Shown here in pieces: positions 7,186 through 25,190 of a stretch of 27,752 nt of DNA (positions are counted from its first letter, which is position 1; each line of letters starts with the position of its first letter). The notes below the pieces were generated by a model. The model was not told the origin of the DNA. It was given only the letters and a program-made list of their open reading frames with translations, and did not search any database. A program made the position numbers and the translations under genes. This stretch comes from Thermacetogeniaceae bacterium (GTDB lineage: Bacteria; Bacillota; DSM-12270; Thermacetogeniales; Thermacetogeniaceae): contig JBNATO010000001.1 in assembly GCA_049701555.1 (NCBI GenBank), forward strand, positions 12,380 through 40,131, given 5' to 3'.

Positions 7186-7207
7186 GTTTTTGCCCCTCCC
7201 CAGCGCC

Positions 7208-7213: not shown

Positions 7214-7239
7214 CGAAGAAAAAACGGGGAGGGGAAATC

Positions 7240-7921: not shown

Positions 7922-10084
7922 TCAGCAGGCATCTGAGGGCTTTTCCGCCGGGAGCAGGAGGTAGAAGGTGCTCCCCTTGCCGAGCTCGCTCTCCACTTCG
8001 AGCCTCCCCCCGTGCCTCTCCGCGATCATTCTGGAGATGCAGAGGCCGAGGCCGGTCCCCTTTCGCTTGGTGGTGTAGAAGGGCATGAAGATCTTCTCCC
8101 TGTCCTCATCTTTTATGCCGCAGCCGCTATCCCTGACGGCGATGAACACATAGCGATCGCGTCGGCCGGTGTAGATCCTGATGACGCGCTCATTTTTCCC
8201 CTCAACGGCATCCCGGGCATTGAGGAGCAGATTGATCAAAACCTGCTCCAGCTGCTGCTTGCTCCCCAAAGCCCTCAGCCCCGGTTCACACGACTCCTTG
8301 ATGATGCGCACGCGCGAGCTCTCGATCTGATGGGCGACCAGATCCAAGGCTGCGTCGATGACGTCCTGGATCTCGATGCTCTCGAAGTTGTACTCTTCCT
8401 GCCGTGCAAAGGTGCAGAGGTTCTGGATGATACTCTTGCAGCGCTCGCCGCACGACCTGATCCCCTCCATCAGCTGCCTCGCTCTCTCCGGCGTGAGATC
8501 AGGCCAGCTTTGCAGCAAAATCAAGGCATTCCCGATGATGGCCGTGAGGGGGCTGTTGAGCTCGTGGGCGACGCCAGCGGCCAGCTCTCCGATGGCGGCG
8601 AGCTTGGCAGACTGTACGATCTGCGCCTCCAACGCCACCCTCTCTGTGACATCGTGGACAACGCAGACGACCTCACGCACCTTTCTCCTCTCATCGAAAA
8701 TGGGGTGAGCGGCGAACTCGAACACCAGACCGTCCGAAGTATGGAGGCGCCACTCGTTAGACCTCCCCTTCAAGAACACATCTCTTATCTGACAAACCTT
8801 GCAGCTCTCCTGCTCTCGGAAACAGAACCTCTCCCCGACCTCCAGCCGCCGCTTCCAAGGGGTATCGAAGGGCTTGTTAAACCTGACGAGGCGGCAACGG
8901 CGGTCGACCACCAACAGGATATCTGTGGTGGCGTTGAACGTGGCCAGCCACTCAGCCTTTGCCTTTTCCTCCTCTCTGTAGAGCCTGACGTTCTCCAAGC
9001 ACAGGGCCAGCTGGTCTCCCACCTTTTGCAAAAAAGAGATATCCTCCTGGGTAAACCTCTGGGGATGGGATCTTGCCAAACACATCAGAGCGACCACTTC
9101 CCCCTTGATGCTCAAGGGTACCGCCAAAACCTGGTAACTGCGGCCCTGCTTATCCCCCGTCTGGATGCAGCAGACCTTTTTCCCTTTTACCGCATCCCTG
9201 TAGATCCTGCTCCATAGCCTTCCCAGCTGGAGTTCTGAGGCTCTCAGCCGACCGGGAGAACATGCCCTTTCAACAGTTCTCCCTTTCTCGATGAGATTGA
9301 TGCTCAGGTAATCAAAAGAGAGCATTTTTCTCAGAATCCTTTTGGTCTTTTCCAGAATCTCCCTCAGAGGCATCCCCACACTGATCTCTTTGGATATCTG
9401 GTTGATCGCTTCCAGCTGGCTGTTGGCGTACTCCATCTCCTCGAGGAGCGCTGTCACGACCTTATAGCTGTTCTCCCACTTCTCGCGCAGCATCGCTTCT
9501 TCTTGATAGAGCTTGGCGTTTTCGATGATCAGGCCGAGGTGATCCGCCACCTGCTGCAGATATTGGCCGTCCTTGGCGGAATAGGCGTTCTTCAGCCTGC
9601 TGCCGAGGTTCAGCGTCCCCAGCACGCTCTTCCTCGATCTCAACGGAACGATGATAAACGACCTGATGCCGTACTCCAGAAGCCCTGCCGCATAAACCCC
9701 TCCATCGGCCTGGATATCAGACTTGATTGAAAGCTGCCCCCTCCTCACCACCTGCCACGACCAGGAGCGGCTGCGGTCGAGGACAGTCCCCTTTCCGAGC
9801 ACCGGCGCGTCCTCCGGCAGAGCGGTTTTCACGATCAGGTCGCCGTCCTCCAGGAGGCAGAGGTTGAGAAGGTCATAGTCGATCAGGCGCCTGAGCTTTC
9901 TTCCCACGTCGCACATGATCTCATCGAAGCTCATATTCACCCTGATCGACCCGGCTATCTGATTGAGGATCTCCAGCTGCAGAATCTTCTCGCTGAGCTC
10001 AGCGAGCTCCACGTATTTATCAGGGAGCAAAGCCTCCCCCGCCTTGAGATCGGCTGAGGCACCAGTGCCTTCCTTATGCAGCAT
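7922..10084 (-). CDS. Cytoplasmic sensor histidine kinase (GAF-GAF-PAS-HisKA-HATPase, NtrB-like)
   Basis: H-box GVAHELNSPL, N-box QVLINLLLNARDA, DSGCGI, FMPFYTTK, GTGLGL. Two homologous GAF blocks, no TM segment. Start at ATG 10084 or GTG 10117. Confidence 0.9.
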   Translation of the reverse strand: MLHKEGTGASADLKAGEALLPDKYVELAELSEKILQLEILNQIAGSIRVNMSFDEIMCDVGRKLRRLIDYDLLNLCLLEDGDLIVKTALPEDAPVLGKGTVLDRSRSWSWQVVRRGQLSIKSDIQADGGVYAAGLLEYGIRSFIIVPLRSRKSVLGTLNLGSRLKNAYSAKDGQYLQQVADHLGLIIENAKLYQEEAMLREKWENSYKVVTALLEEMEYANSQLEAINQISKEISVGMPLREILEKTKRILRKMLSFDYLSINLIEKGRTVERACSPGRLRASELQLGRLWSRIYRDAVKGKKVCCIQTGDKQGRSYQVLAVPLSIKGEVVALMCLARSHPQRFTQEDISFLQKVGDQLALCLENVRLYREEEKAKAEWLATFNATTDILLVVDRRCRLVRFNKPFDTPWKRRLEVGERFCFREQESCKVCQIRDVFLKGRSNEWRLHTSDGLVFEFAAHPIFDERRKVREVVCVVHDVTERVALEAQIVQSAKLAAIGELAAGVAHELNSPLTAIIGNALILLQSWPDLTPERARQLMEGIRSCGERCKSIIQNLCTFARQEEYNFESIEIQDVIDAALDLVAHQIESSRVRIIKESCEPGLRALGSKQQLEQVLINLLLNARDAVEGKNERVIRIYTGRRDRYVFIAVRDSGCGIKDEDREKIFMPFYTTKRKGTGLGLCISRMIAERHGGRLEVESELGKGSTFYLLLPAEKPSDAC

Positions 10085-10226
10085 TACCAGACCCCCCAAA
10101 CCCCGAAGTGCCCTCACCTCTAGCTTAACTCCTCCGACCCGCTAAAACAAGCGGGCCAGCCATGGAGATTTTCTCCGGAGCTTAAAGGCACATCTGCACT
10201 CTACTCCCGCGCCCGGACAAAAAAGT

Positions 10227-10305: not shown

Positions 10306-11583
10306 CTATGACTCCTCCACCCAGCGCTTGATCTCGCCGTATCCATCCCAGACGACCTCGCCGGTATCCCGCTTGACCATCTTCACAGCGGCCTGCGGGC
10401 AGTTGCCCAGGCACCAGCCGCAGCCCATGCAGTATTCGTCGTTGATCTGAGGGCCTTTTTCCTTATCCAGCGTCAGAGCGCCATACGGGCACAGCCTCTC
10501 GCAGGTGCCGCAGCGGTTGCACTTCTCCAGGTCGTACTGCGGGATGATCGGCGACGGGTGCTGCATCGGGTTCTCACGCGGGAAGTCGCGCAGGTAGGAG
10601 AACCTCGGGACACAGATCCCCAGCATGTCCTTGATGGTCTTGTAGCCCTTGCGGTCCATGAACTCGTTGAGGCCCTCGATGATCTCGCCGATGACCTGGA
10701 CTCCTCTCGTGTAGATCGTGGAGCAGAGCTGCACCGTCGGGCACCCTGCCATGATGTATCTCACCACGTCATCCCAGGTGAAGATCCCGCCGATGCCGGA
10801 GCAGGGGATCTTGACAGTTGCCGTGATCTCCAGCACCTTGGCGAGAGAGAGCGGCTGCCAGGTGCGGCCGGGGAGGAAACCGCAGGAGAAGGGCCCTCCG
10901 TAGAAGGTGCCTGTCTCATGGTCTATCCACGTCCCGTAGAAGGCGTTGTTCGCCGAGATGGCATGTCCTCCCGCCTTCTCCACAGCGAGCGCCACCTCCG
11001 CCATGCGCACGCACTGCGGCGTCATCTTGAACATGATCGGGGTCTTGACAGCCTCAACGCAGGCCTTGGTGACCTCATAGGCCTTCTCGGGGTCCAACGC
11101 CAGCGGAGCCCCTACCTCCTTGTGTTTGGCCTCGGCGCCGAACGTGGCGTGCGGACCGCCTGTGTCCAGCTCGATCATGTCCACACCCAGCTTCTCCATG
11201 TCCACGCAGAGCTCAGCCCAGGTCTCAGCGTTCGTCCCTATCCCGGAGATGCTGGCTATAAACACCACATCGTTCTCCTTGCACAGGTCCCTGATCCTGG
11301 GAGCGATCTCATCGCGCCACTTTTCGTAAGGGATGTGGCTGAACATCTCGGAGCAGATCCAGGTGTCGCGCAGCTCCTTGCCGAAGCGCCTGAGGGAATA
11401 GAAATAGGGCCTAGGCCAGCGGTGGACGCCATCGATCTTGTGGACTGTCTTCGACACCAGCCCACCTATCCCCTGGGCGATGACCCTTTTGGCCATGTGC
11501 AAGGTCTCACCGAAGTCGTTCGAAGAGACGAGCACCGGGTTTTTGAATTTGATGCCGCACATCTCTGTCCTCAAATCAGCCAT
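10306..11583 (-). CDS. Dihydropyrimidine dehydrogenase PreA / DHODH-like FMN enzyme with a C-terminal 2x[4Fe-4S] domain; non-canonical active site
   Basis: GIKFKNP, VSKT, FKMTP, GIGGI, VQLCS; CNRCGTCERLCP and CMGCGWCLGNCP. ELDTGGPH stands in place of ELNxSCP(H/N). RBS GAGGAGG. Confidence 0.85.
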   Translation of the reverse strand: MADLRTEMCGIKFKNPVLVSSNDFGETLHMAKRVIAQGIGGLVSKTVHKIDGVHRWPRPYFYSLRRFGKELRDTWICSEMFSHIPYEKWRDEIAPRIRDLCKENDVVFIASISGIGTNAETWAELCVDMEKLGVDMIELDTGGPHATFGAEAKHKEVGAPLALDPEKAYEVTKACVEAVKTPIMFKMTPQCVRMAEVALAVEKAGGHAISANNAFYGTWIDHETGTFYGGPFSCGFLPGRTWQPLSLAKVLEITATVKIPCSGIGGIFTWDDVVRYIMAGCPTVQLCSTIYTRGVQVIGEIIEGLNEFMDRKGYKTIKDMLGICVPRFSYLRDFPRENPMQHPSPIIPQYDLEKCNRCGTCERLCPYGALTLDKEKGPQINDEYCMGCGWCLGNCPQAAVKMVKRDTGEVVWDGYGEIKRWVEES

Positions 11584-11635
11584 ATCTATACCTCCTCGGG
11601 ATTTTTATGACTTATGATAAAGCCACTTCCTGCCC

Positions 11636-12556
11636 TTACATCATCCTGCCGACGGAAACCTTTAAGCCGCATTCCTCAAGGATCGCCTTCGCCCTGGCGA
11701 CATCTTCTTTGGTCAGATCCCGGAAGCTCCCGTACGGAGACTTCATGCCGAGGTAGCCGTACTTGCCTGTTCCCAGCTTGTGCAAGGGATTGAGGTCGAT
11801 CCAGGAGATCCCCAGCTCCCTCGCAAACTCAGCCGTCCTCCTCAGGTTTTCCTCAGAATCGTTGAAGTCCGGGATCAAGGGGAGGGAGATCCTCACCTTT
11901 CCGCTTTTGGCAAGAAGCCTAGCGTTCTCCAGGATCAGCTCGTTGCTGACCCCAGTCCCTTCCTTGTGCCTCTGGGGGTCCATGTGCTTGATATCGAGCA
12001 GGAAGAGGTCTGTCCACTGCAGAGCCTTCTCTATGTTCTCGGGCGAGGTGTAAGCCGTCGTGTCCAACACCGTGGTGATCCCTCTCTCCTTGCATGCCTG
12101 GAGTATGGCAAGAGCAAACCTCGCCTGGTAGAAGGGTTCGCCGCCGCTCAAGGTGACGCCTCCGTCATCGCCGTAAAACGGCAGGTCCTTTTCTACCTCA
12201 GCAACGACCTCAGCGACCGAATACTCCCTTCCAACCTCGATAAAGGCCTGGTTGGGGCAAGCCGCCACGCACTTCATGCAGAGCGTGCACTTCTCCCTGT
12301 CGACCTTGTTCTTTTTGTCCATGCTCAGAGCGCCCGCCGGGCACTCTCTCACACAAGCCCCGTACCCCTGGCACCTCTTGCTGATGAAGTAAAGCTGGCG
12401 CTCCAGCGTCCAGGTCTCGGGGTTGCAGCACCACCTGCAGCGCAGCGGGCACCCCTTGATGAAGACGGTCGTCCTGATCCCTGGGCCATCGTGGGTGGCA
12501 AACCTCTTGATCTCGGTGATGACGCCTCTGATATCTTCCCCAAAGCTCTGAGGCAT
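11636..12556 (-). CDS. Glycyl-radical enzyme activating enzyme (radical SAM, with ferredoxin-like insert)
   Basis: HDGPGIRTTVFIKGCPLRCRWCCNPE, GVTLSGGEP, LDIKHMD. Insert CQGYGACVRECP / CTLCMKCVAACP. Likely start ATG 12556; the ORF track extends it into the upstream gene. Confidence 0.94.
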   Translation of the reverse strand: MPQSFGEDIRGVITEIKRFATHDGPGIRTTVFIKGCPLRCRWCCNPETWTLERQLYFISKRCQGYGACVRECPAGALSMDKKNKVDREKCTLCMKCVAACPNQAFIEVGREYSVAEVVAEVEKDLPFYGDDGGVTLSGGEPFYQARFALAILQACKERGITTVLDTTAYTSPENIEKALQWTDLFLLDIKHMDPQRHKEGTGVSNELILENARLLAKSGKVRISLPLIPDFNDSEENLRRTAEFARELGISWIDLNPLHKLGTGKYGYLGMKSPYGSFRDLTKEDVARAKAILEECGLKVSVGRMM

Positions 12557-12563
12557 CTCAGGA

Positions 12564-13154
12564 TCACTCTTTGATCTTGATCCACGGCGGCCCAAGGGAG
12601 ATGACTTGCCGCTTGAAGGTGCCGTTGAGGATGATGGCAGCGCTCTGCCAGATGATCGTCAGGATCATCAAGGGGAGGTCCCACGTGGCGATGACCCAGA
12701 ACGGTTTGAAAGAGGTCAGGAAGTAGAGCGCAGCAAACAGGAAGAAGACATCAGTCCAGATCATGAAGAGCGTGGGGCCTGTTCCTTTGATCATGTACGC
12801 CGGGGTGAAGCTGATCATCAACAGAGCCATTATCAGAAACACCCAGCCGTCGACCGCAGCGGTGTTGTGCGGCAGCAGCTTCAGGCACTGGAGCAGCTTC
12901 TCGAACATGCCATACCACATGAAGGAGCTGAAAGCCAGCATGATGTTTCCAGGGCCGACCTCTCCTATTCTGAGCTCGATAATCCCTGAGATCACCTGCA
13001 CCAAGCCGCCGCAGAAGCCCAGCGCCACCAGTATGTAAATCAGCTCGTGAGGCGCCATTCCGGCAGCCACAGGCCAGAGACACCCCAGGTAAAATGCGAG
13101 CACCATCATCCCCGCAGGCGCGGGAGTCGCCCAACCCTTATTGTCAGACATCAC
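12564..13154 (-). CDS. GPR1/FUN34/YaaH (AceTr/SatP) family small carboxylate channel
   Basis: About six TM helices; WATPAPAG resembles the NPAPLGL signature; GGLVQVISGIIELRIG and AFSSFMW. RBS AGGAGG. Confidence 0.75.
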   Translation of the reverse strand: MMSDNKGWATPAPAGMMVLAFYLGCLWPVAAGMAPHELIYILVALGFCGGLVQVISGIIELRIGEVGPGNIMLAFSSFMWYGMFEKLLQCLKLLPHNTAAVDGWVFLIMALLMISFTPAYMIKGTGPTLFMIWTDVFFLFAALYFLTSFKPFWVIATWDLPLMILTIIWQSAAIILNGTFKRQVISLGPPWIKIKE

Positions 13155-13188: not shown

Positions 13189-14454
13189 TCATTTCACGCT
13201 CAAGTAGCGGACGAGCACCCTGTAGTTCCAGGGGTAGGGAGAGTTGATCAGGGTCACCTTTTCGATCTCGGAGCGCAGTTCGGCCATGTTCACCCTTCTC
13301 CTCATTGCTCCCAAGAGAATCCCCATCTTATCGGCGTATCTCCCTATCGCCTGAGCCCCTACGAGCACGCCCTCCTTCAAGATCAGCCTGTAGTAGTCGC
13401 CGTCTCTCCGCTTCTCCACAAGCTCCACGCCGGAGGTATCCCCCATCATCGTCAAAGTCCTGCCGATGGATATGGCATGTGTGTGGAAGAAGTGAGCCCT
13501 TGCGAAGTTCCACGCCCCGGCATATCTCTTCCGCAACCCCAGGCAGTTGGCAGCAGCCACCTCGGCCTGCTCCACAGCGTTGTGCTTCAGGAGATAGAGG
13601 GCGCTCTCTCCGGTGATGGCATCCCAGGACTCGACGCAGTCGCCGCAGGCGTAGACGTCTTTCCCGCTGGTCGCCATGTGCTCATCGACCTTGATCCCCC
13701 GCGATCTCGCGACATCGATCCCTGCGTCAGCGGCGATCTTGCTCGAGGGGACGACGCCTGCTGCCACGACCACCGTGTCGCATTTGATCTGGCGCTTGTC
13801 CGTGGTCACTCCCTGCACGCAGCGATCTCCGTCGATGCTCTGCACCTTCTCCTTTACCAGCACATTGATGCCGTTCCTCTCGAGGTCCTCCTTGAGCAGC
13901 TCGGCTGCTTCCCTGTCGAAGACGCGGGGCAGGATCCAATCCATCAGCTCGATCAGGTAGACCTCATAACCCCGCTTTTTCAGCGCCTCGGCAGCCTCGA
14001 TCCCGATCAGACCAGAGCCGATCACAACAGCCGCAGAGCCGCGATGCGCTGCCAAAGCATCGGCGTCGGCGAGGACCTTGCAGCAGAAGACTCCCTTCTT
14101 ATCTACCCCCTTTATCGGTGGAATTACCTGATCGCCCCCTGTGGCGATGATCAGCCTATCGTAATCCAGGGCTTCCCGGTTTTCCAGAACGACCTTCTTC
14201 GCCTGCCTGTCTATTCCCACGGCTCTCGTTCCAAACCTCGTAACGATGCCATCCTGCTCGTAGTCGCTTAACTCTCTGAAAAAGAGCACCTGCCGCGGGA
14301 CATCTCCGCTGACGTAGTATGGAAGGGCACCGGGCTCATATGCCGGGCAGTCTTCGGCTGAGACCATCACTATCTCACAGCTGTGGTCATACCTTCTGAT
14401 GCATCTCGCTGCAGCATTGCCAGCGATGCCGTTCCCGACGATCACGACCCTCAC
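13189..14454 (-). CDS. FAD/NAD(P)-dependent oxidoreductase (AorC / NirB N-terminal / rubredoxin reductase type)
   Basis: IVGNGIAG, ATGG, VIGSGLIGIE, VDEHMATS...YACGDC. Likely start GTG 14454 after RBS GAAGGAG. Confidence 0.88.
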   Translation of the reverse strand: MRVVIVGNGIAGNAAARCIRRYDHSCEIVMVSAEDCPAYEPGALPYYVSGDVPRQVLFFRELSDYEQDGIVTRFGTRAVGIDRQAKKVVLENREALDYDRLIIATGGDQVIPPIKGVDKKGVFCCKVLADADALAAHRGSAAVVIGSGLIGIEAAEALKKRGYEVYLIELMDWILPRVFDREAAELLKEDLERNGINVLVKEKVQSIDGDRCVQGVTTDKRQIKCDTVVVAAGVVPSSKIAADAGIDVARSRGIKVDEHMATSGKDVYACGDCVESWDAITGESALYLLKHNAVEQAEVAAANCLGLRKRYAGAWNFARAHFFHTHAISIGRTLTMMGDTSGVELVEKRRDGDYYRLILKEGVLVGAQAIGRYADKMGILLGAMRRRVNMAELRSEIEKVTLINSPYPWNYRVLVRYLSVK

Positions 14455-14483
14455 AGCATTCACTCCTTCGATGAATGATTCTG

Positions 14484-14514
14484 GAGCCCGGGCCCAGGAG
14501 TCAGGCCCGGGCTC
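14484..14514. repeat. Intergenic GC-rich inverted repeat (11-bp stem, no U-tract)
   Basis: GAGCCCGGGCC-caggagtca-GGCCCGGGCTC between the AOR and FAD genes. Confidence 0.8.
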
Positions 14515-14527
14515 TCTTACCTTCCGC

Positions 14528-16522
14528 TCACGCCTTCCCCTTGGATGCCAGGTATTGGCGGTAGAGCTCCTTCCCTTTTTCAATATCTTCGATTATCTCC
14601 TCGATGCCGAGCTCCTTCGCCTTCTCCGGAGTGATGAATCCGTCATCATCCCAGCCGTGCAGGCGGTAATACTCCGACTGCGCCCATTCCCATTCCTTGC
14701 GGTCGATCTTGATCCCCTTGTAGGGCCCATCGACGACCGGATCCTCGAAGTACCTGTCGATATGGGTGTCGTCCTGGCGGGCGCTCCCCTCTCGGTTCCA
14801 GTGGGCACGCTCGATGTTGATGACGCGCTCCGCAGCCTTGAAGATCTCCTCGTCTGGGAGGTCTACGCCGGTTGCGAGGCGCAAGAGCGGCGTGTACGAC
14901 CTCCAGTCACCCGCACCGCCCCAGGAGCCGATGGCCTGGCAACACATGCCCACAAGGTCAGCGACGCACTTGTTCTTCTCCGACCAGGTGCAGAGCTTGG
15001 GCTTGGTCTTCAGGGTGTAGAGCTCCTTCGGGAAGTCCTTCCAGAACTCCTCGGTCAGCTCAGGCCCAAGGACCTCGGCGACGAGCTCCTTCCGGCTCAT
15101 GGCGCAGCCCTGGAACTCCAGGCAGGAGTAGTTCTTCAGGTGGTCGGAGCCGCGGGTGGACATGGCGTAGCCGAGGCTGAAGCCCATGGCGATCCGCGGG
15201 TCGACGCTGATGTGCTCAAGCCCACGGCAGTGCGGCACGAGCTTTTCGGTGCCGCGCCCGATCTTCTCCGCAGCCCGGATCGCTCCCTCTGCGAGGACGT
15301 CGCCGAAGCCCTTGCGGAAGGCGATCATCTCGAGGACCTTCATGGCGGTGTCGAGGTCGCCCCACTCGAAGGTAAGGCCGCCGGTGTCCTCCTTGGTGAG
15401 CAGCCCCTTCTCCCAGCACTCCATCGCCCAGGAGATGGCCCCACCGGCGGAGATGCTGTCCATCCCTAGATCGTTCACCATACCACAGAGGACGTTGACA
15501 GTTTCCACGTCGTAGGTGTCGAGGCGCGGCCCGAGGTTGCAGACGCTCTCCATCTCCGGCCCGCCGGCATGGAAGCCCGCAAAGCGGCCTTCCTTGATCA
15601 GCGTGTAGCGGCCGCAGCAAACGGGGCAAGACCAGCACCCTTTGCGGCGGAAGAGGAATTTCTCCGCCCACTGGAGGCCGCCGTAGGTCTCCTCAAGGCC
15701 CGGCATGTAGCCTGTGCTCACGTTCCTGTGGGCGTTGATCCCGATGATGTTTCCGGCGTCGAAGAGGTCCATCGTCCCCTCGATGCGGCGCCTGATCGCA
15801 GAGGGAGAGTTGTGGATCTTCTCCCGCAGCGCCCAGCAGGCCTCCGCGAACTCCTTGGGCTTGGCGAAGGTGATCGGGCGGTTCCCCCTGACGGCGATCG
15901 CCTTCAGGTTCTTGGAGCCCATCACAGCGCCCATGCCCGTCCTGCCGCCTGCGGCGCTGAAGGAGTTGACGATGCAGGCGAACCTCACCAGGTTCTCACC
16001 GGCAGGCCCAATGCAGGCGACCCTCACATCGGGGTCATCGAGCTCGTTCAAGATCCTCTTGGTCGTCTCCTTGACGCCCAATCCCCAGAGGTGTGAGGCA
16101 TCGCGGATCTCGATACGGTCGCCGTCGACCAAGATCCAAACAGGCTTGTCCGCCTTCCCTTTGACGACTATCTGGTCGTAGCCGGCGTACTTCATGTAGG
16201 CAGCGAACTGGCCGCCCATGTTGGTGTCGCCATGCCCGTGGACATTGGTGCCTCTGTACGAACAGGTCATCGGGGAGCGCGCCGAGACCGTAGTCCTGCC
16301 GGACAGGGGAGCAAACGTTCCAGCGAGGGGGCCTGTGCCGAAACACAAGGGGTTGGCCGGGTCGAAGGGGTCCATCCCCTGCCATGTCTCGTGGTAGACC
16401 ACCTCTGAGTTGAATCCTCTGCCGCCGATCCACTTTTTGAGGTAATCCAGGCTCAGCTCTTCTATCTCATACTTGCGCTCTGTAAGGTCAATCCTCAACC
16501 TGCGTCCTGCCCAACCATGCAT
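14528..16522 (-). CDS. aor: Aldehyde:ferredoxin oxidoreductase family tungsto/molybdoenzyme, catalytic subunit
   Basis: GWAGRRLRIDLT, IGGRG, AGYDQIVVKG, IGPAGENLV, GMGAVMGSKNLKAI, CWSCPVCC, DPR...STRGSDH, YYRLHGWD. Start ATG 16522 (RBS GGGAGG) or 16531. Confidence 0.93.
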   Translation of the reverse strand: MHGWAGRRLRIDLTERKYEIEELSLDYLKKWIGGRGFNSEVVYHETWQGMDPFDPANPLCFGTGPLAGTFAPLSGRTTVSARSPMTCSYRGTNVHGHGDTNMGGQFAAYMKYAGYDQIVVKGKADKPVWILVDGDRIEIRDASHLWGLGVKETTKRILNELDDPDVRVACIGPAGENLVRFACIVNSFSAAGGRTGMGAVMGSKNLKAIAVRGNRPITFAKPKEFAEACWALREKIHNSPSAIRRRIEGTMDLFDAGNIIGINAHRNVSTGYMPGLEETYGGLQWAEKFLFRRKGCWSCPVCCGRYTLIKEGRFAGFHAGGPEMESVCNLGPRLDTYDVETVNVLCGMVNDLGMDSISAGGAISWAMECWEKGLLTKEDTGGLTFEWGDLDTAMKVLEMIAFRKGFGDVLAEGAIRAAEKIGRGTEKLVPHCRGLEHISVDPRIAMGFSLGYAMSTRGSDHLKNYSCLEFQGCAMSRKELVAEVLGPELTEEFWKDFPKELYTLKTKPKLCTWSEKNKCVADLVGMCCQAIGSWGGAGDWRSYTPLLRLATGVDLPDEEIFKAAERVINIERAHWNREGSARQDDTHIDRYFEDPVVDGPYKGIKIDRKEWEWAQSEYYRLHGWDDDGFITPEKAKELGIEEIIEDIEKGKELYRQYLASKGKA

Positions 16523-16585
16523 AGAGCTCATTCCTCCCTTATGCTGAAATTTCCCTGTTGGTCAGCCTCCCACAAACCCGGGGCA

Positions 16586-17146
16586 TCAACCGAAGCTGAA
16601 GCCGAACTGTATCCCTTCTTCCTTGACGCCCTTGGGCTTAAACTCTTCTTTGAGCTGCCAGGCCAGACCGCGGCCCTTGACCTGCGACACCTTATACTTG
16701 GGAACATACATCAAGGCCTTTTGCATAGTGCACGCCCGGACGCACCAGGGGGTCTCCTCGCCGCCGCAGAGGTCGCAGGTCATCGTCTTCCCGTTCTCGG
16801 GGTTGATCACGGGCGCCCCGTACGGGCAGACGTAGATGCACGCCCTGCAGCCTATGCAGGCATCCTCATTGGTCACCACAGCGCCGCTGGCCAGCCTGAC
16901 CCTGGCACCCATCGGGCAGACCTTGATGCAGGCGGCGTCCGCACATGCCTGGCAAGTTATGGGGATAAAGGTGTTGACCTCGCGGAACTCCTGGATCCTG
17001 ATCCTCGAATAGTTGGGATGGTTCTTCTGGAAGTGCTTCATCGAGCAGGCCATCTCGCACGAATGGCAGCCAGCGCACTTCTCGGGGTCGATGACGATCA
17101 CCATCTGATTCATCTCTGCTACCTTCACTCGATCTCTCTCATCCAT
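16586..17146 (-). CDS. 4x[4Fe-4S] electron-transfer subunit (DmsB/NrfC/AorA type)
   Basis: CAGCHSCEMAC, CQACADAACIKVCP, CIGCRACIYVCP, CDLC...CVRAC. Start ATG 17146 after RBS GAGGAGG. Confidence 0.92.
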   Translation of the reverse strand: MDERDRVKVAEMNQMVIVIDPEKCAGCHSCEMACSMKHFQKNHPNYSRIRIQEFREVNTFIPITCQACADAACIKVCPMGARVRLASGAVVTNEDACIGCRACIYVCPYGAPVINPENGKTMTCDLCGGEETPWCVRACTMQKALMYVPKYKVSQVKGRGLAWQLKEEFKPKGVKEEGIQFGFSFG

Positions 17147-17207
17147 CAGCCACACACTCCTCCTCGTTTTTCTTTTATCCGACACCGGCAAACCGCTGAG
17201 GGCAGTC

Positions 17208-17251
17208 CCCTGCTGCGGCAGGGGGCCAGAAGGGGCTCTGCCGCAGCAGGG
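17208..17251. repeat. Intergenic GC-rich inverted repeat (14-bp stem, no U-tract)
   Basis: CCCTGCTGCGGCAG (17208-17221) and CTGCCGCAGCAGGG (17238-17251), between the hydrolase and Fe-S genes. Confidence 0.8.
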
Positions 17252-17258
17252 CAAACCT

Positions 17259-18317
17259 TTAGGCAAGCCCGATCAGCTTCGCCGGGACTTCCTTGGCCAT
17301 GACGTTGATGTCAGCCTCATCTACTCCCTGAGACATGAGGATCCTCAGGAAGTGCCACCAGCCGGTAACAGGCTCATTCCCGGGCTGGCCGGCATCGCTC
17401 GCCAGCACCAGATGGTCGGGGCCCTTTTCCTTGATCAGCTCTTTGATCAGGTTCATCGAGTAGTCGAACGCCACAACCCAGTCCTGCATTCCTGGCCAGG
17501 GGATGCAAGAGCACTCACAGAACTGCATGTAAGCGCCGAGGTCGATCATCTCCTTCGCTTCCTCAGGGGTGACGATCGTCAGCTCTTGCGTGCAGTGGTC
17601 GACGACGCAGTCGACATCGATGCCTCTCCTCTTGATGTACTTGAGGATCGCCACCTTCTCCTCATTGGAGACATGGCAGAGGGCAAGCACGCAGCGTTCA
17701 CCTTTCCTGTTCTTGTTGAAGTCTGCGATGATGTCGATGATCTCCTTCATCTTGTCGACAGGCTCGTCGCCCTCAGCCACCACGATCCCGCCTTCCAGCC
17801 CCATAGCTGCCCTCTGGTGCCAGGCGTCAAGGGACGGCAGCCAGATCGTCCTGCACCGCCCGTAGCCGAGGGCTGTCTGCACCATCTTGGGGTTCAGGCC
17901 GCCCACCGACTCGTTCAGCGTCACCCCGCCGTAGACCTCGACAGGCGTGAACTCCTTGCCCTGCGCCTCCAGTTCCTTCTTCAGCGCATCCATCATCTCG
18001 GTGATAACCGTGGCCGCATGGTGTGTCCAGCAGTTGTGGTCCTTGAAGACTAGAGCCCTCATCCCCGCCTTGCTAGCCTCGAGGCAGGTCTCGGTCATCG
18101 GCGGGCGCCCTGCCAGCCAGGCTCCCATCGGCGCCCCGTGGATGTGGATATCGATCACACCCTTCAGGACCTCGTTGACCTTCTCCCGCTCCACCGGCCT
18201 GCCGGGGTTGAAGTACTTGTACGGCCATACCTCGCTGGTGCGTCGCTGCAGCTCCTCCTCGGTGATCACGCGGCCAAACTTCTTCGCCTTCCACTCTTCA
18301 TGCGCCTTTACCTTCAC
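17259..18317 (-). CDS. Amidohydrolase-superfamily metal-dependent hydrolase, DUF6282-like
   Basis: IDIHIHGAP (HxH), FKDH, GGVTLN...GGLNP, LCHVS, VVDH, LASDAGQ metal-ligand pattern. The DUF6282 call is from memory. Confidence 0.72.
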   Translation of the reverse strand: MKVKAHEEWKAKKFGRVITEEELQRRTSEVWPYKYFNPGRPVEREKVNEVLKGVIDIHIHGAPMGAWLAGRPPMTETCLEASKAGMRALVFKDHNCWTHHAATVITEMMDALKKELEAQGKEFTPVEVYGGVTLNESVGGLNPKMVQTALGYGRCRTIWLPSLDAWHQRAAMGLEGGIVVAEGDEPVDKMKEIIDIIADFNKNRKGERCVLALCHVSNEEKVAILKYIKRRGIDVDCVVDHCTQELTIVTPEEAKEMIDLGAYMQFCECSCIPWPGMQDWVVAFDYSMNLIKELIKEKGPDHLVLASDAGQPGNEPVTGWWHFLRILMSQGVDEADINVMAKEVPAKLIGLA

Positions 18318-18379: not shown

Positions 18380-20851
18380 TTACAGTTCCTCGAACTCCGT
18401 TCTCTCGATGATCTGCCGCTGTACATCTGGGCCGAGGTCGATGAACCTGGCGGTGAACCCGGCGACCCTGACCATCAGGTCGGGGTACTTCTCGGGGTGC
18501 TTCTGGGCGTCCAGCAGCATCCTCCTGTCGACGATGTTGAACTGGATCTGGTAGCCACCGAGGCGGAAATAGGTGTCACAGAGCCTGATGAACTTCTCGG
18601 TGCCGATGTCACCGGAGACGGCAGCTGGGTTGAACTTCATGTTGAAGAGCGTCGCCTGCAGGTTGTCAGCATGGACCTTGGCCGCAGACTTGATCATGCT
18701 CGTGGGGCCATTCACGTCAGTGCCGGGGAATGCCGAGATAGCGCCGTCTGCCAGGTAATCGCCCGCCTTTCGGCCATCAGGGCTGGCGCCGCAGGCCTTT
18801 CCGTGCAGGACCTGTGTCGTCACAGAGAGGGTGCTCGGGCGCCAGGGCTCGCCCAGCCAGTTCAATCTCTTCTGAGCGCTCTCAGACCAGGCGTCGTAGA
18901 GGTCCACCAGGATCTGGTCGACATAGTCGTCGTCGTTGCCGTACTTCGGGGCTTCCTTCAGCTTGCGGCGCAGGAGCTCATGGCCCTCGAAGTTGTCGGC
19001 AAGCGCCTTCTTGATCTCCTGGATGGTGTAAACCTTGTCCTCGTAGACGAGCTTCTTGAGCGCAGCCAGGCTGTTGGCGACGTTGACCATGCCGCAGGTG
19101 ATCACGTAAGCGGGGTCGTTGTAGCGGCAACCTCCCTCATAGGCGTGCATCCCCTTTTCCAAACAGTCGTCGAGGAGGGCAGACATGAAGGGGTGAACGA
19201 GGCCGAGCTCGTTGTGCACCAGCATGATGGTGTTCCAGTACTCTTCCTGGCGGTCTACGATCAGGTCCATGATCCTCTTGTACTCAGCGACGATCTCCTC
19301 GTATGTGGCCTTTTCGGCATCGATCTGGGTATCCACGAGCTTATCGCCGGTCACAGGGTTTACCCCGTTGTTGAGGACGAGCTCCAGGATCTTTAGGTTG
19401 TTGGTATGTGGTATGGCGTACATCGGCATCCTCTTGCCGCAGATCTGTATGTCCACGCAGCCGCAGGGAGCCCAGTCCCTGGCGTCCTCTAGGTTGGCGC
19501 CGGTCACTCTCATAAACCTCTGTGTGGCCAACTCATCGTTGAACAGCGCCGGGTAACCGTTTCCAGCCTTGATCGCCTCTATAACCTTCCTCTTGAACTC
19601 CTTGCTCATATCCTCGCGCCAGCGCACAGAGATCGTCGGCTGCCATGTCTTCACGTTGATCCCTGCCTGCAGGATAAGGCGCGACAGCTCGTTGTCCGCA
19701 GGGCGCCCGTAACGGTCTACACCGCCGATGGTCAAGTTCTGGTATACGCTGCCGCCGAGGTAAGACTCCGTAAACGTGGCGTGCGCTCTGGTGATCTCCG
19801 AGCATTTGATCCGCATCAGCTCCAGCAGCTCCAAGGCCTGCGCCTCTGTGATCCTGCCGGAGTCGATGTCGTTCTTAAACGGCCTGTACATGTACTGGTC
19901 GAATCTCCCCGGCGAAATCCCTCTCCCGTTGAGCTCGATGAAGAGGCAGACATGGGTGAACCAGAACGACTGCATCGCCTCGTGGAAGGTATCGGCGGGC
20001 TTCCTCGGGACCTTGCGGCAGATCCTGGCGATCTCTAGAAGCTCCTGCTTTCTCCTGTCATCCTTACACTCCGCCGCCAGCCTCTCGGCCTCTCTGGCAT
20101 AGTTTTCGGCAAAGGCGATGACACCCTCGAGAGCCAGTATGGTCCCTTTGTAGAAGTTGTACTTGTCGAGCTTCTCCTTTGTGTTCAGCTGTCCAAGCCT
20201 GGCGATCTTCTCCTCGATGAGGGCGATCAAGGCCTCAAGGCCGAGGTCGATCACCTTCTGGTAGTCGACGATGACCCTCCCCTCAGGAACATCGAACATG
20301 AACCTCAAGAAAACCAGCTGCTGCTGCCACTTCTCCACCTGGTCGAAGTCGGGCATCGTCGCCTTGAGATACCTCTCGGCCACGCTCCTCCAGTCGCGGC
20401 CCTCCCAGAACTTGCAGACCTCAAGGATCTTCTCCTGGTCCTCCTCGTAGATCCTGTAGATCCCCAGCCTGTTTCCGCCGCGCTCCTGCAAGGTTCCCTT
20501 GATGTAGCGCTCCTCGACCCTCTTGATGTTCTTGAACCCCTCGAGCATCCACGTCTCGTACTCAGGGTAGACCTGCGTCCCGCGGAAGTACCTGGAGATG
20601 TTCCCGACTATCAGCTCCTCGTCCCAGATCCTCGGGGTGAGGTTTTCCAGGACGTACTTCAGAGCACCGCCTGCCCTCAGGTAGACCGGCTCGTTCCAGT
20701 GCTCCTTCATGTACTCGGTGAACAGCACCGCACGCTCAGAGTCGATAAAGGGCTCCTCAGAGACCAAAGCTTCAAACCTCTTCTTCACGCGCTCTGTCGA
20801 AGGAGCCCCCTTTACCTCCCTGTCGACGTACGCCACCTCTCCCTTCGACAT
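18380..20851 (-). CDS. Glycyl radical enzyme (PFL-like superfamily) of unknown specificity, resembling the arylacetate-decarboxylase group
   Basis: Gly loop VRVAGF (18455-18469), Cys loop APCGCVD (CGCVD at 19451-19465), ELIVG, SPGRFDQY, GNGYPALFND, PKYGNDDDYVD, QFNIVD. Start ATG 20851 after GGGGGAG; 823 aa. Confidence 0.95.
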   Translation of the reverse strand: MSKGEVAYVDREVKGAPSTERVKKRFEALVSEEPFIDSERAVLFTEYMKEHWNEPVYLRAGGALKYVLENLTPRIWDEELIVGNISRYFRGTQVYPEYETWMLEGFKNIKRVEERYIKGTLQERGGNRLGIYRIYEEDQEKILEVCKFWEGRDWRSVAERYLKATMPDFDQVEKWQQQLVFLRFMFDVPEGRVIVDYQKVIDLGLEALIALIEEKIARLGQLNTKEKLDKYNFYKGTILALEGVIAFAENYAREAERLAAECKDDRRKQELLEIARICRKVPRKPADTFHEAMQSFWFTHVCLFIELNGRGISPGRFDQYMYRPFKNDIDSGRITEAQALELLELMRIKCSEITRAHATFTESYLGGSVYQNLTIGGVDRYGRPADNELSRLILQAGINVKTWQPTISVRWREDMSKEFKRKVIEAIKAGNGYPALFNDELATQRFMRVTGANLEDARDWAPCGCVDIQICGKRMPMYAIPHTNNLKILELVLNNGVNPVTGDKLVDTQIDAEKATYEEIVAEYKRIMDLIVDRQEEYWNTIMLVHNELGLVHPFMSALLDDCLEKGMHAYEGGCRYNDPAYVITCGMVNVANSLAALKKLVYEDKVYTIQEIKKALADNFEGHELLRRKLKEAPKYGNDDDYVDQILVDLYDAWSESAQKRLNWLGEPWRPSTLSVTTQVLHGKACGASPDGRKAGDYLADGAISAFPGTDVNGPTSMIKSAAKVHADNLQATLFNMKFNPAAVSGDIGTEKFIRLCDTYFRLGGYQIQFNIVDRRMLLDAQKHPEKYPDLMVRVAGFTARFIDLGPDVQRQIIERTEFEEL

Positions 20852-20915
20852 ACTTTCGTCTCCCCCTCTCACGCACAATTTAAACTTTTTCCTGCTGAAC
20901 CGCAGAAGAGTTGCA

Positions 20916-20950: not shown

Positions 20951-20968
20951 TTGCAATTTATGTGCCAT
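20951..20968 (-). promoter_or_regulatory. Sigma54 (-24/-12) promoter of the GRE operon
   Basis: Minus strand reads ATGGCAC-ATAAA-TTGCAA, an exact TGGCAC-N5-TTGCA with GG-N10-GC spacing, about 100 bp before the GRE start. Confidence 0.9.
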
Positions 20969-21170: not shown

Positions 21171-22640
21171 ATGGGGCGAATTCTCATCGTCGACGATGAC
21201 CGCGATGTGTGTAATTTTTTCTTTTATCTCCTCGAGCCGAAGGGACACGAGGTTTTATTGGCAGAATCGGGAGAGAAGGCCAGAAGGGCATTCCGCCAGC
21301 CGCTGCACTTAGCCATCCTTGACCTCAAGCTTCCCGATGCCGATGGCCTGGAACTCCTCAAAGAGGTCAAATCTCACCAGCCGAGCTGCGAAGTGATCAT
21401 GATGACAGGCTACTCCACCGTAAGATCTGCTGTCAAGGCCATCCAGCTAGGGGCCTTCGATTACCTGGAAAAACCTTTCAGCAACCTGGACGCCTTGCAT
21501 GAGGTCATCAACAAAGCCTTGAACAAGGCGACAACCCTGATGTCCCAAGAAGCGCCCGCCCTGGAAGAAGGGATAGGGAGCATCTTGAAAGAGCTCGAGT
21601 TCATCGCCGGAAAAAGCGAGAGCATGCGCAAGCTCCTCATGATCGCCAAAAAGCTCGCCAACAAGAACATCCCCATACTGATCCAGGGGGAGACAGGAAG
21701 CGGAAAGGAGATGGTGGCGCGCTTCATCCACGCCGCCAGCAGCAGGGCCAGCAGGCCGTTTATGGCGGTCAACTGCGGAGCTTTGCCGGAGAGCCTCCTC
21801 GAGAGCACGCTCTTTGGGCATGAGCGGGGAGCATTCACAGGAGCCACAAACCAAGTAAAGGGAATATTTGAGCTGGCGCACAAGGGCACCCTCTTCCTGG
21901 ACGAGATCGGCGACGCCAGCCAGGAGATCCAGGTAAAGCTGCTGAGGGTGCTGGAAACCGGCGAGGTGTTCCGGATCGGAGCGGAAAAGCCCATCCATGT
22001 CGATGTGCGGCTGATGGCGGCGACCAACAAGAACCTGGAAGAGCTCGTGGAGCAGAGGGTATTTCGTGAAGACCTCTTCTACAGGTTGAACGTCGTCACC
22101 CTGGAGGTGCCCCCGCTGCGCCAGAGAAAAGAGGAGATCCCTGACCTCATCGAGCACTTCCTCGCCAAATACTACTTCCCAGCGAAACCGCCCCTGCTCA
22201 CGCCACAGGCGAGGAAGGCCCTGCTCGACTACCATTGGCCCGGCAACATCAGGGAGCTTCGCAACGTCATAGCGCAGATCGCCGCACTATGCGACCAGCC
22301 GGAGATCCGGCTGGAACACCTGCCGAAGAAGGTGCTGAACAGGACAGAGCATGGCAAAAGGCTTGCTGCAGCCCCCTCAGAGGACAGGCCCGCATCGCCG
22401 GTTCAGCTCTTCTTCGATGATCTCGAGGCAAGCTTTGACAGGCTTCTGAGAAGCATCGACATCACCTCTGGCGTCGACCTCCCAGAATTCCTCGACAAAT
22501 TCCGAGAACACAAGCTGCGATTCGCAAGGGCTTTGATCGACAAGGCATTAAAGGAGACCAAGGGGCGTTGCCGGGAAGCCGCGGCGCTGCTCCACACCAC
22601 ACCGCGCCATATAAAATACCTGAAAAACGAAAAACAATAA
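21171..22640 (+). CDS. NtrC-family sigma54-dependent response regulator (REC-AAA+-HTH)
   Basis: ILIVDDD, AILDLKLPD, GETGSGKE, ESTLFGHERGAFTGA, LFLDEIG, DLFYRLNV, WPGNIREL. Confidence 0.95.
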   Translation: MGRILIVDDDRDVCNFFFYLLEPKGHEVLLAESGEKARRAFRQPLHLAILDLKLPDADGLELLKEVKSHQPSCEVIMMTGYSTVRSAVKAIQLGAFDYLEKPFSNLDALHEVINKALNKATTLMSQEAPALEEGIGSILKELEFIAGKSESMRKLLMIAKKLANKNIPILIQGETGSGKEMVARFIHAASSRASRPFMAVNCGALPESLLESTLFGHERGAFTGATNQVKGIFELAHKGTLFLDEIGDASQEIQVKLLRVLETGEVFRIGAEKPIHVDVRLMAATNKNLEELVEQRVFREDLFYRLNVVTLEVPPLRQRKEEIPDLIEHFLAKYYFPAKPPLLTPQARKALLDYHWPGNIRELRNVIAQIAALCDQPEIRLEHLPKKVLNRTEHGKRLAAAPSEDRPASPVQLFFDDLEASFDRLLRSIDITSGVDLPEFLDKFREHKLRFARALIDKALKETKGRCREAAALLHTTPRHIKYLKNEKQ

Positions 22641-22659: not shown

Positions 22660-22677
22660 CTGGTACAGAATTTGCAT
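22660..22677 (+). promoter_or_regulatory. Sigma54 (-24/-12) promoter of the MoxR-VWA-MoaD-MoeB operon
   Basis: CTGGTAC-AGAAT-TTGCAT with GG-N10-GC spacing, about 80 bp before the MoxR start. Confidence 0.8.
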
Positions 22678-22756
22678 TTTGATGACTAACAAGAGAAAAA
22701 TTTAGCGACCTTTTTATCAGCAGCTTGGTTAGAAATACTCTGGAGGAGTGATCTCA

Positions 22757-23629
22757 GTGTTTTCCTCAATTGACGAGCTTCAGCAGAAGTTCTCAGAGTG
22801 CCAGTATATCGTCGATCGCCCCGTAGCCACAGTGGTTTACCTTGCTCTCAAGCTCCAAAAACCCATTTTGGTAGAGGGGCCCGCCGGAGTGGGGAAAACG
22901 GAACTCGCCCGAGTTTTGGCTGAGTCTACCAACAGCCCTCTGATCCGACTTCAGTGCTATGAAGGTCTCGATGAGGCGAAGGCGCTTTATGAGTGGAATT
23001 ATCAGAAACAGCTGCTGCGCCTTTACCTCGATCAGGCGCAGCAAAAAACCTGGGACGAAACCAAACATAACATCTTCACTGAGGAATTTCTGCTCGCCAG
23101 GCCTTTGCTGAAGTCCCTCCTTTCTGAGAGGCCTGCGGTGTTGTTGATCGACGAGGTCGACAAGAGCGATGAAGAGTTTGAAAGCTTCCTCTTAGAGATC
23201 TTATCCGACTACCAGGTGAGCATTCCGGAGTTCGGAACAGTGAAAGCAAAGCACATCCCTGTTGTTGTGCTCACCAGCAACAACTCCCGCGACTTCGGTG
23301 ATGCCCTCAAGAGGAGGTGTGTCCATCTTTACCTCGATTATCCTTCATATGAAAGGGAACTGGAGATCGTTCGTCTCAAAGTTCCTGGGATTAAAGAGGC
23401 TTTAGCCCGCCAGCTCGTTCGTTTTGTCCAAAATTTACGGGGGCAAAAGTTGAAAAAGGCACCCAGCATTGCCGAAACCATCGAGTGGGCGCAGGCCTTG
23501 CTCGCCCTTGGGGTTGACTCTCTTGATGCGGAAACCGTTGAAAGCACCTTGGGGATCTTGCTGAAGTATCAGAGTGACATCGAAAAGGTGACCGCGAAAA
23601 AGGTGGCATCTCTTTTGCCAGGCCAGTAA
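22757..23629 (+). CDS. MoxR-family AAA+ ATPase (CoxD-like)
   Basis: Walker A GPAGVGKT, RLQCYEGLD...ALYEWNY, Walker B LLIDEVDK, LTSN, DALKRRC. Start GTG 22757 fits RBS GGAGG (ORF track gives 22748). Confidence 0.92.
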   Translation: MFSSIDELQQKFSECQYIVDRPVATVVYLALKLQKPILVEGPAGVGKTELARVLAESTNSPLIRLQCYEGLDEAKALYEWNYQKQLLRLYLDQAQQKTWDETKHNIFTEEFLLARPLLKSLLSERPAVLLIDEVDKSDEEFESFLLEILSDYQVSIPEFGTVKAKHIPVVVLTSNNSRDFGDALKRRCVHLYLDYPSYERELEIVRLKVPGIKEALARQLVRFVQNLRGQKLKKAPSIAETIEWAQALLALGVDSLDAETVESTLGILLKYQSDIEKVTAKKVASLLPGQ

Positions 23630-23650
23630 GCGGAAGGACGGCTGTCGTTC

Positions 23651-24202: not shown

Positions 24203-24261
24203 TCCAGGGTTTTTGAACCTCCGCCCGTGTGTTGGCTTGGATTGAGAAAGGAGAGAGACTA

Positions 24262-25164: not shown

Positions 25165-25190
25165 AGAAAACAAAGAAAGGGGTAAAGGGG

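Follow-up and report, generated by a model that had tools for sequence, protein, structure and literature searches.

A review on the superfamily of glycyl radical enzymes (GREs) published in June 2026 covers four decarboxylases, the eliminases, three isomerases, and the XSS enzymes, and includes no enzyme with a CxD motif (PMC13450708). To date, approximately two dozen functions have been established for GREs, and no more than four GREs are known as decarboxylases. According to the review, entire clades are without an assignment (PMC13450708). The CxE motif has been described for 4-hydroxyphenylacetate decarboxylase (HPAD) and indoleacetate decarboxylase (IAD), and for the eliminases and isomerases (GD, PD, CutC, HypD, IslA, HpsG, HplG, and YbiW), in which its Glu hydrogen-bonds the substrate hydroxyl (PMC13450708). 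Phenylacetate decarboxylase (PAD/PhdB) carries Gln484 two residues after the catalytic Cys (Cys+2), and its Tyr691 and Trp495 are essential (PMC13450708). In the present study, we analyzed a GRE gene in a 27,752-nucleotide stretch of DNA (the window) from Thermacetogeniaceae bacterium (assembly GCA_049701555.1, contig JBNATO010000001.1, positions 12,380 to 40,131 of the forward strand); the positions given below are those of the window unless a locus is named. Its product, a predicted oxygen-sensitive radical enzyme, has the Cys loop P-C-G-C-V-D. Sequence comparisons revealed that GREs with this loop are a tightly conserved, uncharacterized family that matches no characterized GRE and branches inside the superclade holding IAD and HPAD, which form skatole and p-cresol, respectively, as a member of neither.

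The CGCVD family and its phylogenetic position

The GRE open reading frame is on the minus strand and extends over 18380-20878 if translation starts at a TTG or over 18380-20851 if it starts at an ATG, with its stop at 18380. The ATG at 20851 is likely to be the start codon because it is preceded by a GGGGGAG ribosome-binding site, with a sigma54-type -24/-12 box further upstream (Table 1). Pfam recognized the PFL-like (PF02901, E 5e-183) and Gly_radical (PF01228, E 3e-30) domains. An AlphaFold2 (AF2) model built from 40 sequences had a pLDDT of 94.3 and a TM score of approximately 0.9 against all solved GREs. The loop APCGCVDIQIC, the glycine motif RVAGF, and the PEGR motif, which the initial annotation of this DNA had pointed out, were all found in the minus-strand translation of 18380-20851. 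The Cys loop lies within the segment DWAPCGCVDIQICGKRMPMYAIPH, the glycine loop reads MVRVAGFTARF (R795-V-A-G798-F), and PEGR is part of the segment FDVPEGRVIV. Alignments identified Cys465 as the catalytic Cys, and Asp467 stands where Glu is usual. Gly798 is invariant in the family, as is Cys465, which shares its alignment column with the catalytic Cys in 135 other GREs. A cognate activase gene is located nearby (TIGR02494, 336.7 bits against a cut-off of 174) and is present in 26 related loci. We concluded from these sequence features that the gene encodes an intact, activatable GRE; the possibility of a pseudogene or an artefact was rejected because the frame is intact, the catalytic motifs are all conserved, and the model is confident. 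No small-subunit gene fits between the operon genes (gaps of 62, 54, 34, 52, and 188 bp), in agreement with the lack of an HpdC-like gene noted initially.

More than 120 homologue clusters at 60-100% identity were retrieved from 5.8 billion proteins, all of them unnamed or bearing automatic names only; counted at 90% identity, the clade comprises more than 120 clusters. P-C-G-C-V-D was invariant in 120 of 120 homologue clusters, and RVAGF[TS]A[RK] was nearly so. Among 1.84 billion representatives at 50% identity, the family corresponded to one, the next relative of which was 43% identical; therefore, the family is compact and isolated. It spans Bacillota, Thermodesulfobacteriota, Bacteroidota, Synergistota, Actinomycetota, and archaea, and its metagenome-assembled genome (MAG) sources include Thermoanaerobacterales, Pelotomaculum, Syntrophomonas, Syntrophobacter, Syntrophaceae, Desulfomonilia, Synergistota, Bacteroidales, Coatesbacteria, Eggerthellaceae, and archaea. 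The habitats are guts, digesters, peat, hot springs, and crude oil, and the sequencing-run records are from crude oil, hot springs, and the subsurface and contained no RNA evidence. A literature search found no characterization of this family. Cys at position -2 of the catalytic Cys (Cys463 in this GRE) was restricted to the family and occurred in 0 of 135 other representative GREs. The initial claim that Asp at the Glu position combined with Cys at -2 matches no known enzyme was upheld for the characterized GREs; however, Asp at Cys+2 by itself is not confined to the family, as GCxD also occurs in 9 of 126 other uncharacterized representative GREs. High identity to a characterized GRE was not seen.

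The IAD model (NF033718) ranked highest among the NCBIfam models of the GRE (706.9 bits), followed by generic PFL2 (600 bits), HPAD (NF033715, 504 bits), HpsG (503 bits), and HypD (500 bits). The scores for IAD and HPAD were below the cut-offs of 1100 and 1150 bits, respectively. A genuine IAD representative (P0128) scored 1187.7 bits on NF033718 and was 39% identical to the GRE, and a genuine HPAD representative (P0221) scored 1725 bits and was 36% identical. The curated eliminase models gave 478-503 bits against cut-offs of 1000-1100, with C465-V-D467 in place of CxE, while the PFL model TIGR01255 gave 158.5 bits against a cut-off of 994, the loop being C-G-C and not CC. Arylacetate decarboxylase (AAD, PDB 7E7L) scored 380 bits and ranked 19th among PDB sequences, and a close relationship was not found. 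In the comparison with PAD/PhdB, which was confined to one position, Cys+2 was Asp and not Gln. The fold search was not discriminating because every GRE scored a TM of approximately 0.9.

In trees of 146 GREs (FastTree) and 48 GREs (IQ-TREE, LG+C20 PMSF), one split, with support of 99% and 100%, united the CGCVD family, IAD, HPAD, and a few uncharacterized lineages. Two characters follow this split. Arg at the position of IAD Arg226 was present in the CGCVD family and in 8 of 9 clade members versus 5 of 126 others. In addition, an active-site cap segment, termed extension 1, was 38-64 aa long in the family and the clade versus mostly 14-31 aa elsewhere; it measured 38 aa in the GRE, 43-57 aa in IAD and HPAD, and approximately 24 aa in eliminases. 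These results bear out the initial proposal that arylacetate decarboxylases are the nearest characterized relatives and that the family does not fall far from the decarboxylases. Some of the segments on which that proposal drew were also more similar to IAD and HPAD than to eliminases: VDREV..P.TER matched HPAD at 10 of 13 positions, IAD at 6 of 13, and other GREs at 4 or fewer, and KAGNGYPALFN matched IAD at 8 of 11 positions versus 5-6 elsewhere.

The nearest outgroups are families P0122 and P0127, the gene contexts of which contained unrelated systems (UbiD, amine oxidases, and DUF1329) and were of no help. A P0127 locus (L054, 2488-8142) has two tandem GRE genes with Gly at Cys+2 (GCVG), which represent a neighboring uncharacterized family; they are separated by a PNPOx-like gene and followed by one activase gene. 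A divergent subclade (P0119) is represented by locus L049 (1-22454), in which a 60%-identical GRE has an altered sequence after the loop, GCVDINSTKRPPQW. Its neighbors encode RidA, a split Amidohydro_2 protein, a CoA ligase, two methylmalonyl-CoA-mutase-like proteins, a thiolase, MeaB, and an NCS1 permease (cytosine/purine/hydantoin type). The L049 GRE probably has a different substrate.

The predicted active site

The residues of the GRE pocket were assigned by alignment, with the substrate-bound cryo-EM structure of IAD as the reference (PMC13232127). The catalytic C500 of IAD corresponds to C465, and E502 to D467. Arg226 of IAD, which is equivalent to Arg223 of HPAD, aligned with R192, the Arg of PEGR, and is invariant in the family. 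The gate residue W392 of IAD is replaced by T361, F401 by Y370, and F517 by H482. Ser344 of HPAD, which contacts the substrate carboxylate, corresponds to R310 within an invariant NGRG motif. The His164/Ser282/Asp447 set of glycerol dehydratase (GDH) aligned with R192/G311/A479 (Arg/Gly/Ala). Given these substitutions, the pocket would differ both from the hydrophobic pocket that accommodates the aryl group in IAD and from the diol pocket of dehydratases. Its predicted character is polar and cationic, since it contains two Arg, two Tyr, and one His. The suggestion that the Arg of PEGR may bind the carboxylate of the substrate is not supported by the IAD structure, in which Arg226 stacks on the indole ring instead of binding the carboxylate (PMC13232127).

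The pocket residues were identical in 33 of 35 related loci, with or without aldehyde:ferredoxin oxidoreductase (AOR) genes and whatever the neighboring genes. Because the pockets are the same across these contexts, the family is likely to act on a single substrate in guts, digesters, and the subsurface.

The genome of the host contains a second GRE. The MAG is 2.26 Mb in size and approximately 90% complete, and its contig C33 encodes a genuine HPAD large subunit (L047, 1387-4098; NF033715, 1654 bits) followed by an 89-aa Cys-rich HpdC-like open reading frame (L047, 4128-4397). Therefore, the CGCVD GRE is not expected to be the 4-hydroxyphenylacetate decarboxylase of this organism. As predicted from these genes, this thermophilic subsurface Bacillota MAG may produce p-cresol.

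Operon, partner enzymes, and related loci

The minus-strand operon in the window runs from the GRE through DUF6282, an AorA-like subunit, tungsten AOR (W-AOR), its FAD subunit, AceTr, the activase, and a PreA-like protein to a GAF-PAS histidine kinase (Table 1). The last of these is a probable sensor of the operon; both it and the sigma54 regulator are conserved in the loci closest to this one (L001-L003). The best PDB match of the AorB-like subunit was P. furiosus AOR (381 bits).

Table 1. Features of the GRE operon and its surroundings in the window
Feature	Position	Strand	Basis or remark
GAF-GAF-PAS histidine kinase	7922..10117	-	Pfam
PreA/DHODH-family FMN protein, C-terminal 2x[4Fe-4S] domain	10306..11583	-	Pfam DHO_dh + Fer4
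GRE-activating radical SAM enzyme	11636..12595	-	TIGR02494
AceTr (GPR1/FUN34/YaaH) small-carboxylate channel	12564..13154	-	Weak NCBIfam hit; Atlas structure TM 0.90
FAD/NAD pyridine-nucleotide-disulfide oxidoreductase, AorC/PadH-like	13189..14583	-	Pfam Pyr_redox_2; NCBIfam PadH-like 236 bits
Tungsten aldehyde:ferredoxin oxidoreductase catalytic subunit, AorB-like	14528..16531	-	AFOR_N + AFOR_C; 12 loci
Poly-[4Fe-4S] subunit, AorA-like	16586..17266	-	Pfam Fer4 families; conserved in 14 loci
DUF6282 amidohydrolase-fold metallohydrolase	17259..18317	-	Pfam PF19799; linked to GRE in 21 loci
Glycyl radical enzyme (GRE), 823 aa	18380..20851	-	Pfam PFL-like + Gly_radical; AF2 model
RVAGF codons	18455..18469	-	R795-V-A-G798-F
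P-C-G-C-V-D codons, family signature	19451..19468	-	P462-C-G-C465-V-D467; thiyl Cys465, extra Cys463
PEGR codons	20276..20287	-	Contains R192
sigma54-type -24/-12 box TGGCACataaaTTGC	20953..20967	-	Exact match; ~100 nt upstream of the GRE ATG
sigma54-dependent response regulator, NtrC family	21171..22640	+	Pfam, NCBIfam; divergent from GRE

The DUF6282 protein has the HxH/Lys/His/His/Asp set of binuclear amidohydrolases, in which HxH, K92, H215, H241, and D308 were invariant in the alignment. Its AF2 model had a pLDDT of 83. A fold search found no close relative among solved structures; the neighbors in the PDB were generic amidohydrolases (dipeptidases, PLL lactonases, and LigI) with a TM of approximately 0.5. 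Therefore, the chemistry of DUF6282 is not inferable from this search, and an assignment to a subfamily on this basis was abandoned.

The PreA-like gene was always adjacent to the activase gene (23 loci), and its product carries two [4Fe-4S] motifs and an invariant TPQC motif. In an alignment with pig dihydropyrimidine dehydrogenase (DPD), N609, N668, C671, and T737 of DPD were replaced by C77, D140, G143, and A214, respectively, and the protein thus lacks two of the three pyrimidine-binding Asn and the catalytic Cys. Because of these replacements, it appears unlikely to act on ordinary pyrimidines. Orotate/dihydroorotate or uracil as its ring substrate was likewise weakened as a candidate, since the catalytic Cys of DPD and dihydroorotate dehydrogenase (DHODH) is among the replaced residues. 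The PreA-like protein may act as an enzyme of the pathway or, alternatively, as a dedicated electron donor.

In a comparison of 37 loci, the GRE, activase, PreA-like, and DUF6282 genes made up the conserved core. The latter two were present, with 55-91% identity, in all complete bacterial loci. A carboxylate transporter accompanied the core, namely, AceTr or, in gut loci, a major facilitator superfamily (MFS) protein, the closest matches of which were SfMCT, an L-lactate transporter, and the oxalate/formate antiporter (OFA) family. AOR-ABC and AceTr were found in about a dozen environmental loci, and an aldehyde oxidoreductase was missing from approximately half of the loci, including all gut ones. 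In Bacteroidales, a three-subunit molybdenum enzyme of the xanthine dehydrogenase (XDH) family replaces AOR in the same place; the GRE in this order is flanked by genes for an aminotransferase, a fused oxidoreductase similar to indolepyruvate oxidoreductase (IOR), and ADP-forming acyl-CoA synthetases, with PTA and ACK nearby. Gut Firmicutes and Eggerthellaceae have a self-contained cassette of DUF6282, activase, PreA-like protein, GRE, and MFS with a PucR regulator. This cassette is complete in the cultured human-gut species Enterocloster aldenensis (L057, 10001-18351, with the activase gene at 11101-12003 and the GRE gene at 13424-15889; GCA_052361165.1, JBIGIO010000009.1), directly downstream of a PaaK-IorA-IorB-PaaK-ACT operon. 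In a Eubacteriales locus, genes for a VorB-type 2-oxoacid:ferredoxin oxidoreductase, a D-2-hydroxyacid dehydrogenase, a phosphotransacylase, and a kinase lie beside DUF6282, an arrangement that mirrors the oxidative branch feeding HPAD in C. scatologenes (PMC13285125). Bacteroidales, Eubacteriales, and E. aldenensis are thus three lineages with 2-oxoacid:ferredoxin oxidoreductase modules next to the GRE cassette. The archaeal locus has the GRE and activase genes only, preceded by genes for an Amidohydro_1 protein and a RibD_C reductase, and no PreA-like gene was found near them.

Other genes border the operon. A second sigma54-like box, TGGTACagaatTTGC, is located at 22661-22675. Genes for a MoxR-type AAA ATPase, a VWA protein, and MoaD/MoeB-like proteins (22748-26206) lie downstream of the sigma54 regulator and probably serve in the maturation of the tungsten cofactor of AOR; MoxR and MoeB homologues recur in some related loci. 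On the other side, a Crp/FNR-family regulator and a 218-aa protein resembling small nitrite/sulfite reductases (NIR_SIR) are encoded at 6471-7896, adjoining the histidine kinase; the NIR_SIR protein is not conserved in related loci. Sulfonate lyase activity was considered for the GRE and rejected because the sulfite-reductase-like gene (7240-7896) is not conserved and the family lacks CxE and the Arg/Gln/Arg set.

Possible reactions and relation to known systems

In our judgment, it is roughly as likely as not that the GRE works as a radical decarboxylase or C-C lyase and that its substrate is a polar carboxylic acid distinct from 4-hydroxyphenylacetate, indoleacetate, and phenylacetate. For such a reaction, the activase would generate the Gly798 radical, which would then generate the Cys465 thiyl radical. 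R310, at the position of HPAD Ser344, and R192, at that of IAD Arg226, would hold the substrate carboxylate near Cys465. The thiyl radical would oxidize the substrate by a Kolbe-type step or hydrogen-atom transfer, and CO2 would depart. Asp467, probably via a water molecule, would reprotonate Cys465, which would then quench the product radical; Asp467 would serve as the proton relay, the role of Glu in IAD and HPAD. The acid may be imported by the AceTr or MFS carboxylate transporter or be made by the adjacent 2-oxoacid:ferredoxin oxidoreductase module. The GRE step would be part of a fixed three-enzyme route that also involves the PreA-like protein, as a ferredoxin-linked C=C oxidoreductase, and the binuclear metallohydrolase DUF6282. 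Since this pair is constant, we infer a multi-step route that combines C=C redox chemistry beside a carbonyl with a hydrolytic step on an amide, lactone, or ester. An aldehyde oxidoreductase (W-AOR or the XDH-family molybdenum enzyme) would feed or drain the route in many environmental lineages, either by supplying the acid or by removing an aldehyde that is formed later.

More tentatively, and with the balance of probability against it, we speculate on a reaction type new to GREs, in which a small polar acid without an aromatic ring would undergo radical decarboxylation or be cleaved at a C-C bond; together with the PreA-like and DUF6282 proteins, the GRE would form an undescribed anaerobic catabolic route. 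A dicarboxylate or an alpha-amino acid of the N-acyl or heterocyclic type may be the substrate, and the second Cys or a CO2 radical anion may take part. Dihydroorotate, 5-oxoproline, imidazole- or oxindole-acetate, malonate, oxalate, and succinate were considered as substrates, and none was supported over the others. The initial annotation proposed a decarboxylase-like GRE for a new (hetero)aryl acid. The first part is plausible, whereas a (hetero)aryl acid is somewhat disfavored because of the polar pocket, transporters from small-carboxylate families, and the constant PreA-like and DUF6282 partners.

Several findings weigh against the decarboxylase or C-C lyase for a polar acid that we favor. 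Residues that assist Kolbe chemistry are replaced, with A479 at the position of IAD His514 and I584 at that of HPAD Glu637 (Leu616 in IAD). Extension 2 is absent (6 aa versus 26-28 aa in IAD and HPAD), as is the long N-terminal extension of both enzymes. The stem of the family is long (0.6), some eliminase-type families are 40-41% identical to the GRE versus 39% for IAD, and the best PDB sequence match is glycerol dehydratase (486 bits, 34% identity). Furthermore, a simple decarboxylation leaves the obligatory PreA-like and DUF6282 partners unexplained, and the frequent aldehyde oxidoreductase fits an aldehyde-forming lyase equally well. Such a 1,2-eliminase or lyase, which we consider unlikely, would use Cys465 to abstract the carbinol hydrogen of a hydroxylated anionic substrate and Asp467 to deprotonate the hydroxyl; the neighboring group would leave, and AOR or the XDH-type molybdenum enzyme would oxidize the aldehyde product to an acid. 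The three-subunit W-AOR that follows the GRE in 12 loci and its non-orthologous replacement in Bacteroidales point to an aldehyde intermediate, Asp could serve as a general base, and glycerol and propanediol dehydratases are the best PDB sequence and fold matches by E-value. However, phylogeny and the two shared characters group the family with the decarboxylases, and the dehydratase triad is lost (H164 to R192, S282 to G311, and D447 to A479). CxD is found in no characterized eliminase (PMC13450708), and the loci without an aldehyde oxidoreductase have identical GRE pockets.

The membership of the same clade and the shared conserved Arg, which stacks on the ring in IAD (PMC13232127), may also be explained by a terminal decarboxylase of (hetero)arylacetates, such as imidazole-, pyridyl-, or catechol-type acetates, with a methyl-(hetero)arene released as the dead-end product, as is the case for IAD and HPAD. 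IOR-type (arylpyruvate) oxidoreductases adjoin the cassette in Bacteroidales and Enterocloster, and the polar Y370, Y478, and H482 could hydrogen-bond a heteroaromatic ring. Nevertheless, we regard this activity as quite unlikely: a dead-end step does not need PreA-like and DUF6282 proteins, which no complete bacterial locus lacks, the transporters are members of small-carboxylate families, such a step would bring no gain to the many hosts that are syntrophs, and the present genome already has a genuine HPAD. The invariant Cys at -2, found in none of the 135 other representatives, raises the prospect that Cys463-Gly-Cys465 cooperate as a pair, as in PFL or ribonucleotide reductase. This pair may catalyze 2-oxoacid or dicarboxylate C-C cleavage that forms or consumes formate via a CO2 radical anion; the gut MFS resembles lactate and oxalate/formate transporters. 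Alternatively, the pair may become a Cys463-Cys465 disulfide in a net reduction and be re-reduced by the PreA-like Fe-S flavoprotein; this protein is always encoded directly beside the activase, and the residues of DPD for pyrimidine binding and catalysis are lost from it. Chemistry of this kind is improbable in our view, given the low score on the PFL model (158 bits versus a cut-off of 994) and an archaeal GRE and activase with no PreA-like gene nearby.

The family is large, very conserved, and phylogenetically broad, with an active-site loop unlike that of every characterized GRE. It is locked to two further unstudied enzyme families, and solving its function would therefore probably annotate three families at once; it would also probably reveal a common anaerobic route for a common metabolite. 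The cultured host E. aldenensis makes this question directly testable. If the more tentative reading with a small non-aromatic acid is correct, this anaerobic route of catabolism, as yet undescribed, would be widely distributed, from the guts of animals to oil reservoirs and in archaea.

Among known systems, the CxE eliminases, namely, glycerol and propanediol dehydratases (1R8W and 5I2A) and CutC (5FAU), share with the GRE the fold, a similar length, and the lack of extension 2, and the aldehyde-oxidizing enzyme of the GRE operon is as expected downstream of an eliminase. In contrast, they have Glu in place of Asp, the His/Ser/Asp set of GDH in place of Arg/Gly/Ala, and a position on the other side of the 99-100% split. 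Ring reduction followed by ring opening by an amidohydrolase is known from two pairs, 6-hydroxynicotinate reductase with enamidase and DPD with dihydropyrimidinase. Similar to these pairs, the PreA-like and DUF6282 proteins combine a DHODH/DPD-family flavoprotein with a binuclear enzyme of the amidohydrolase fold; they differ in the replaced pyrimidine-binding Asn and catalytic Cys of the PreA-like protein and in the distance of DUF6282 from solved structures. To our knowledge, neither pathway includes a GRE.

HPAD (HpdBC; 2Y8N/2YAJ; NF033715) shares the superclade and the Arg223 equivalent, and had the highest TM score by query (0.93). The GRE neighborhoods with 2-oxoacid:ferredoxin oxidoreductase modules also recall the C. 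scatologenes hpd cluster (PMC13285125). Differences from HPAD are the 36% identity, its gamma subunit, which the GRE lacks, Ser344 versus Arg310, Glu637 versus Ile584, and GCLE versus GCVD. IAD of Olsenella (NF033718; PMC13232127) resembles the GRE in being the top curated model and in the same split, the R226/R192 correspondence, the lack of a small subunit, part of extension 1, and several N-terminal and core segments. In contrast, identity is only 39%, Glu502, a Gly, and the Trp392 gate stand in place of Asp467, Cys463, and Thr361, and the F401/H514/F517/L616 pocket corresponds to Y370/A479/H482/I584, which does not reproduce the hydrophobic indole pocket. IAD also has extension 2 and an N-terminal 'seatbelt', both of which the GRE lacks. 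Furthermore, IAD is a stand-alone GRE/activase pair, whereas the CGCVD GRE belongs to a multi-enzyme operon.

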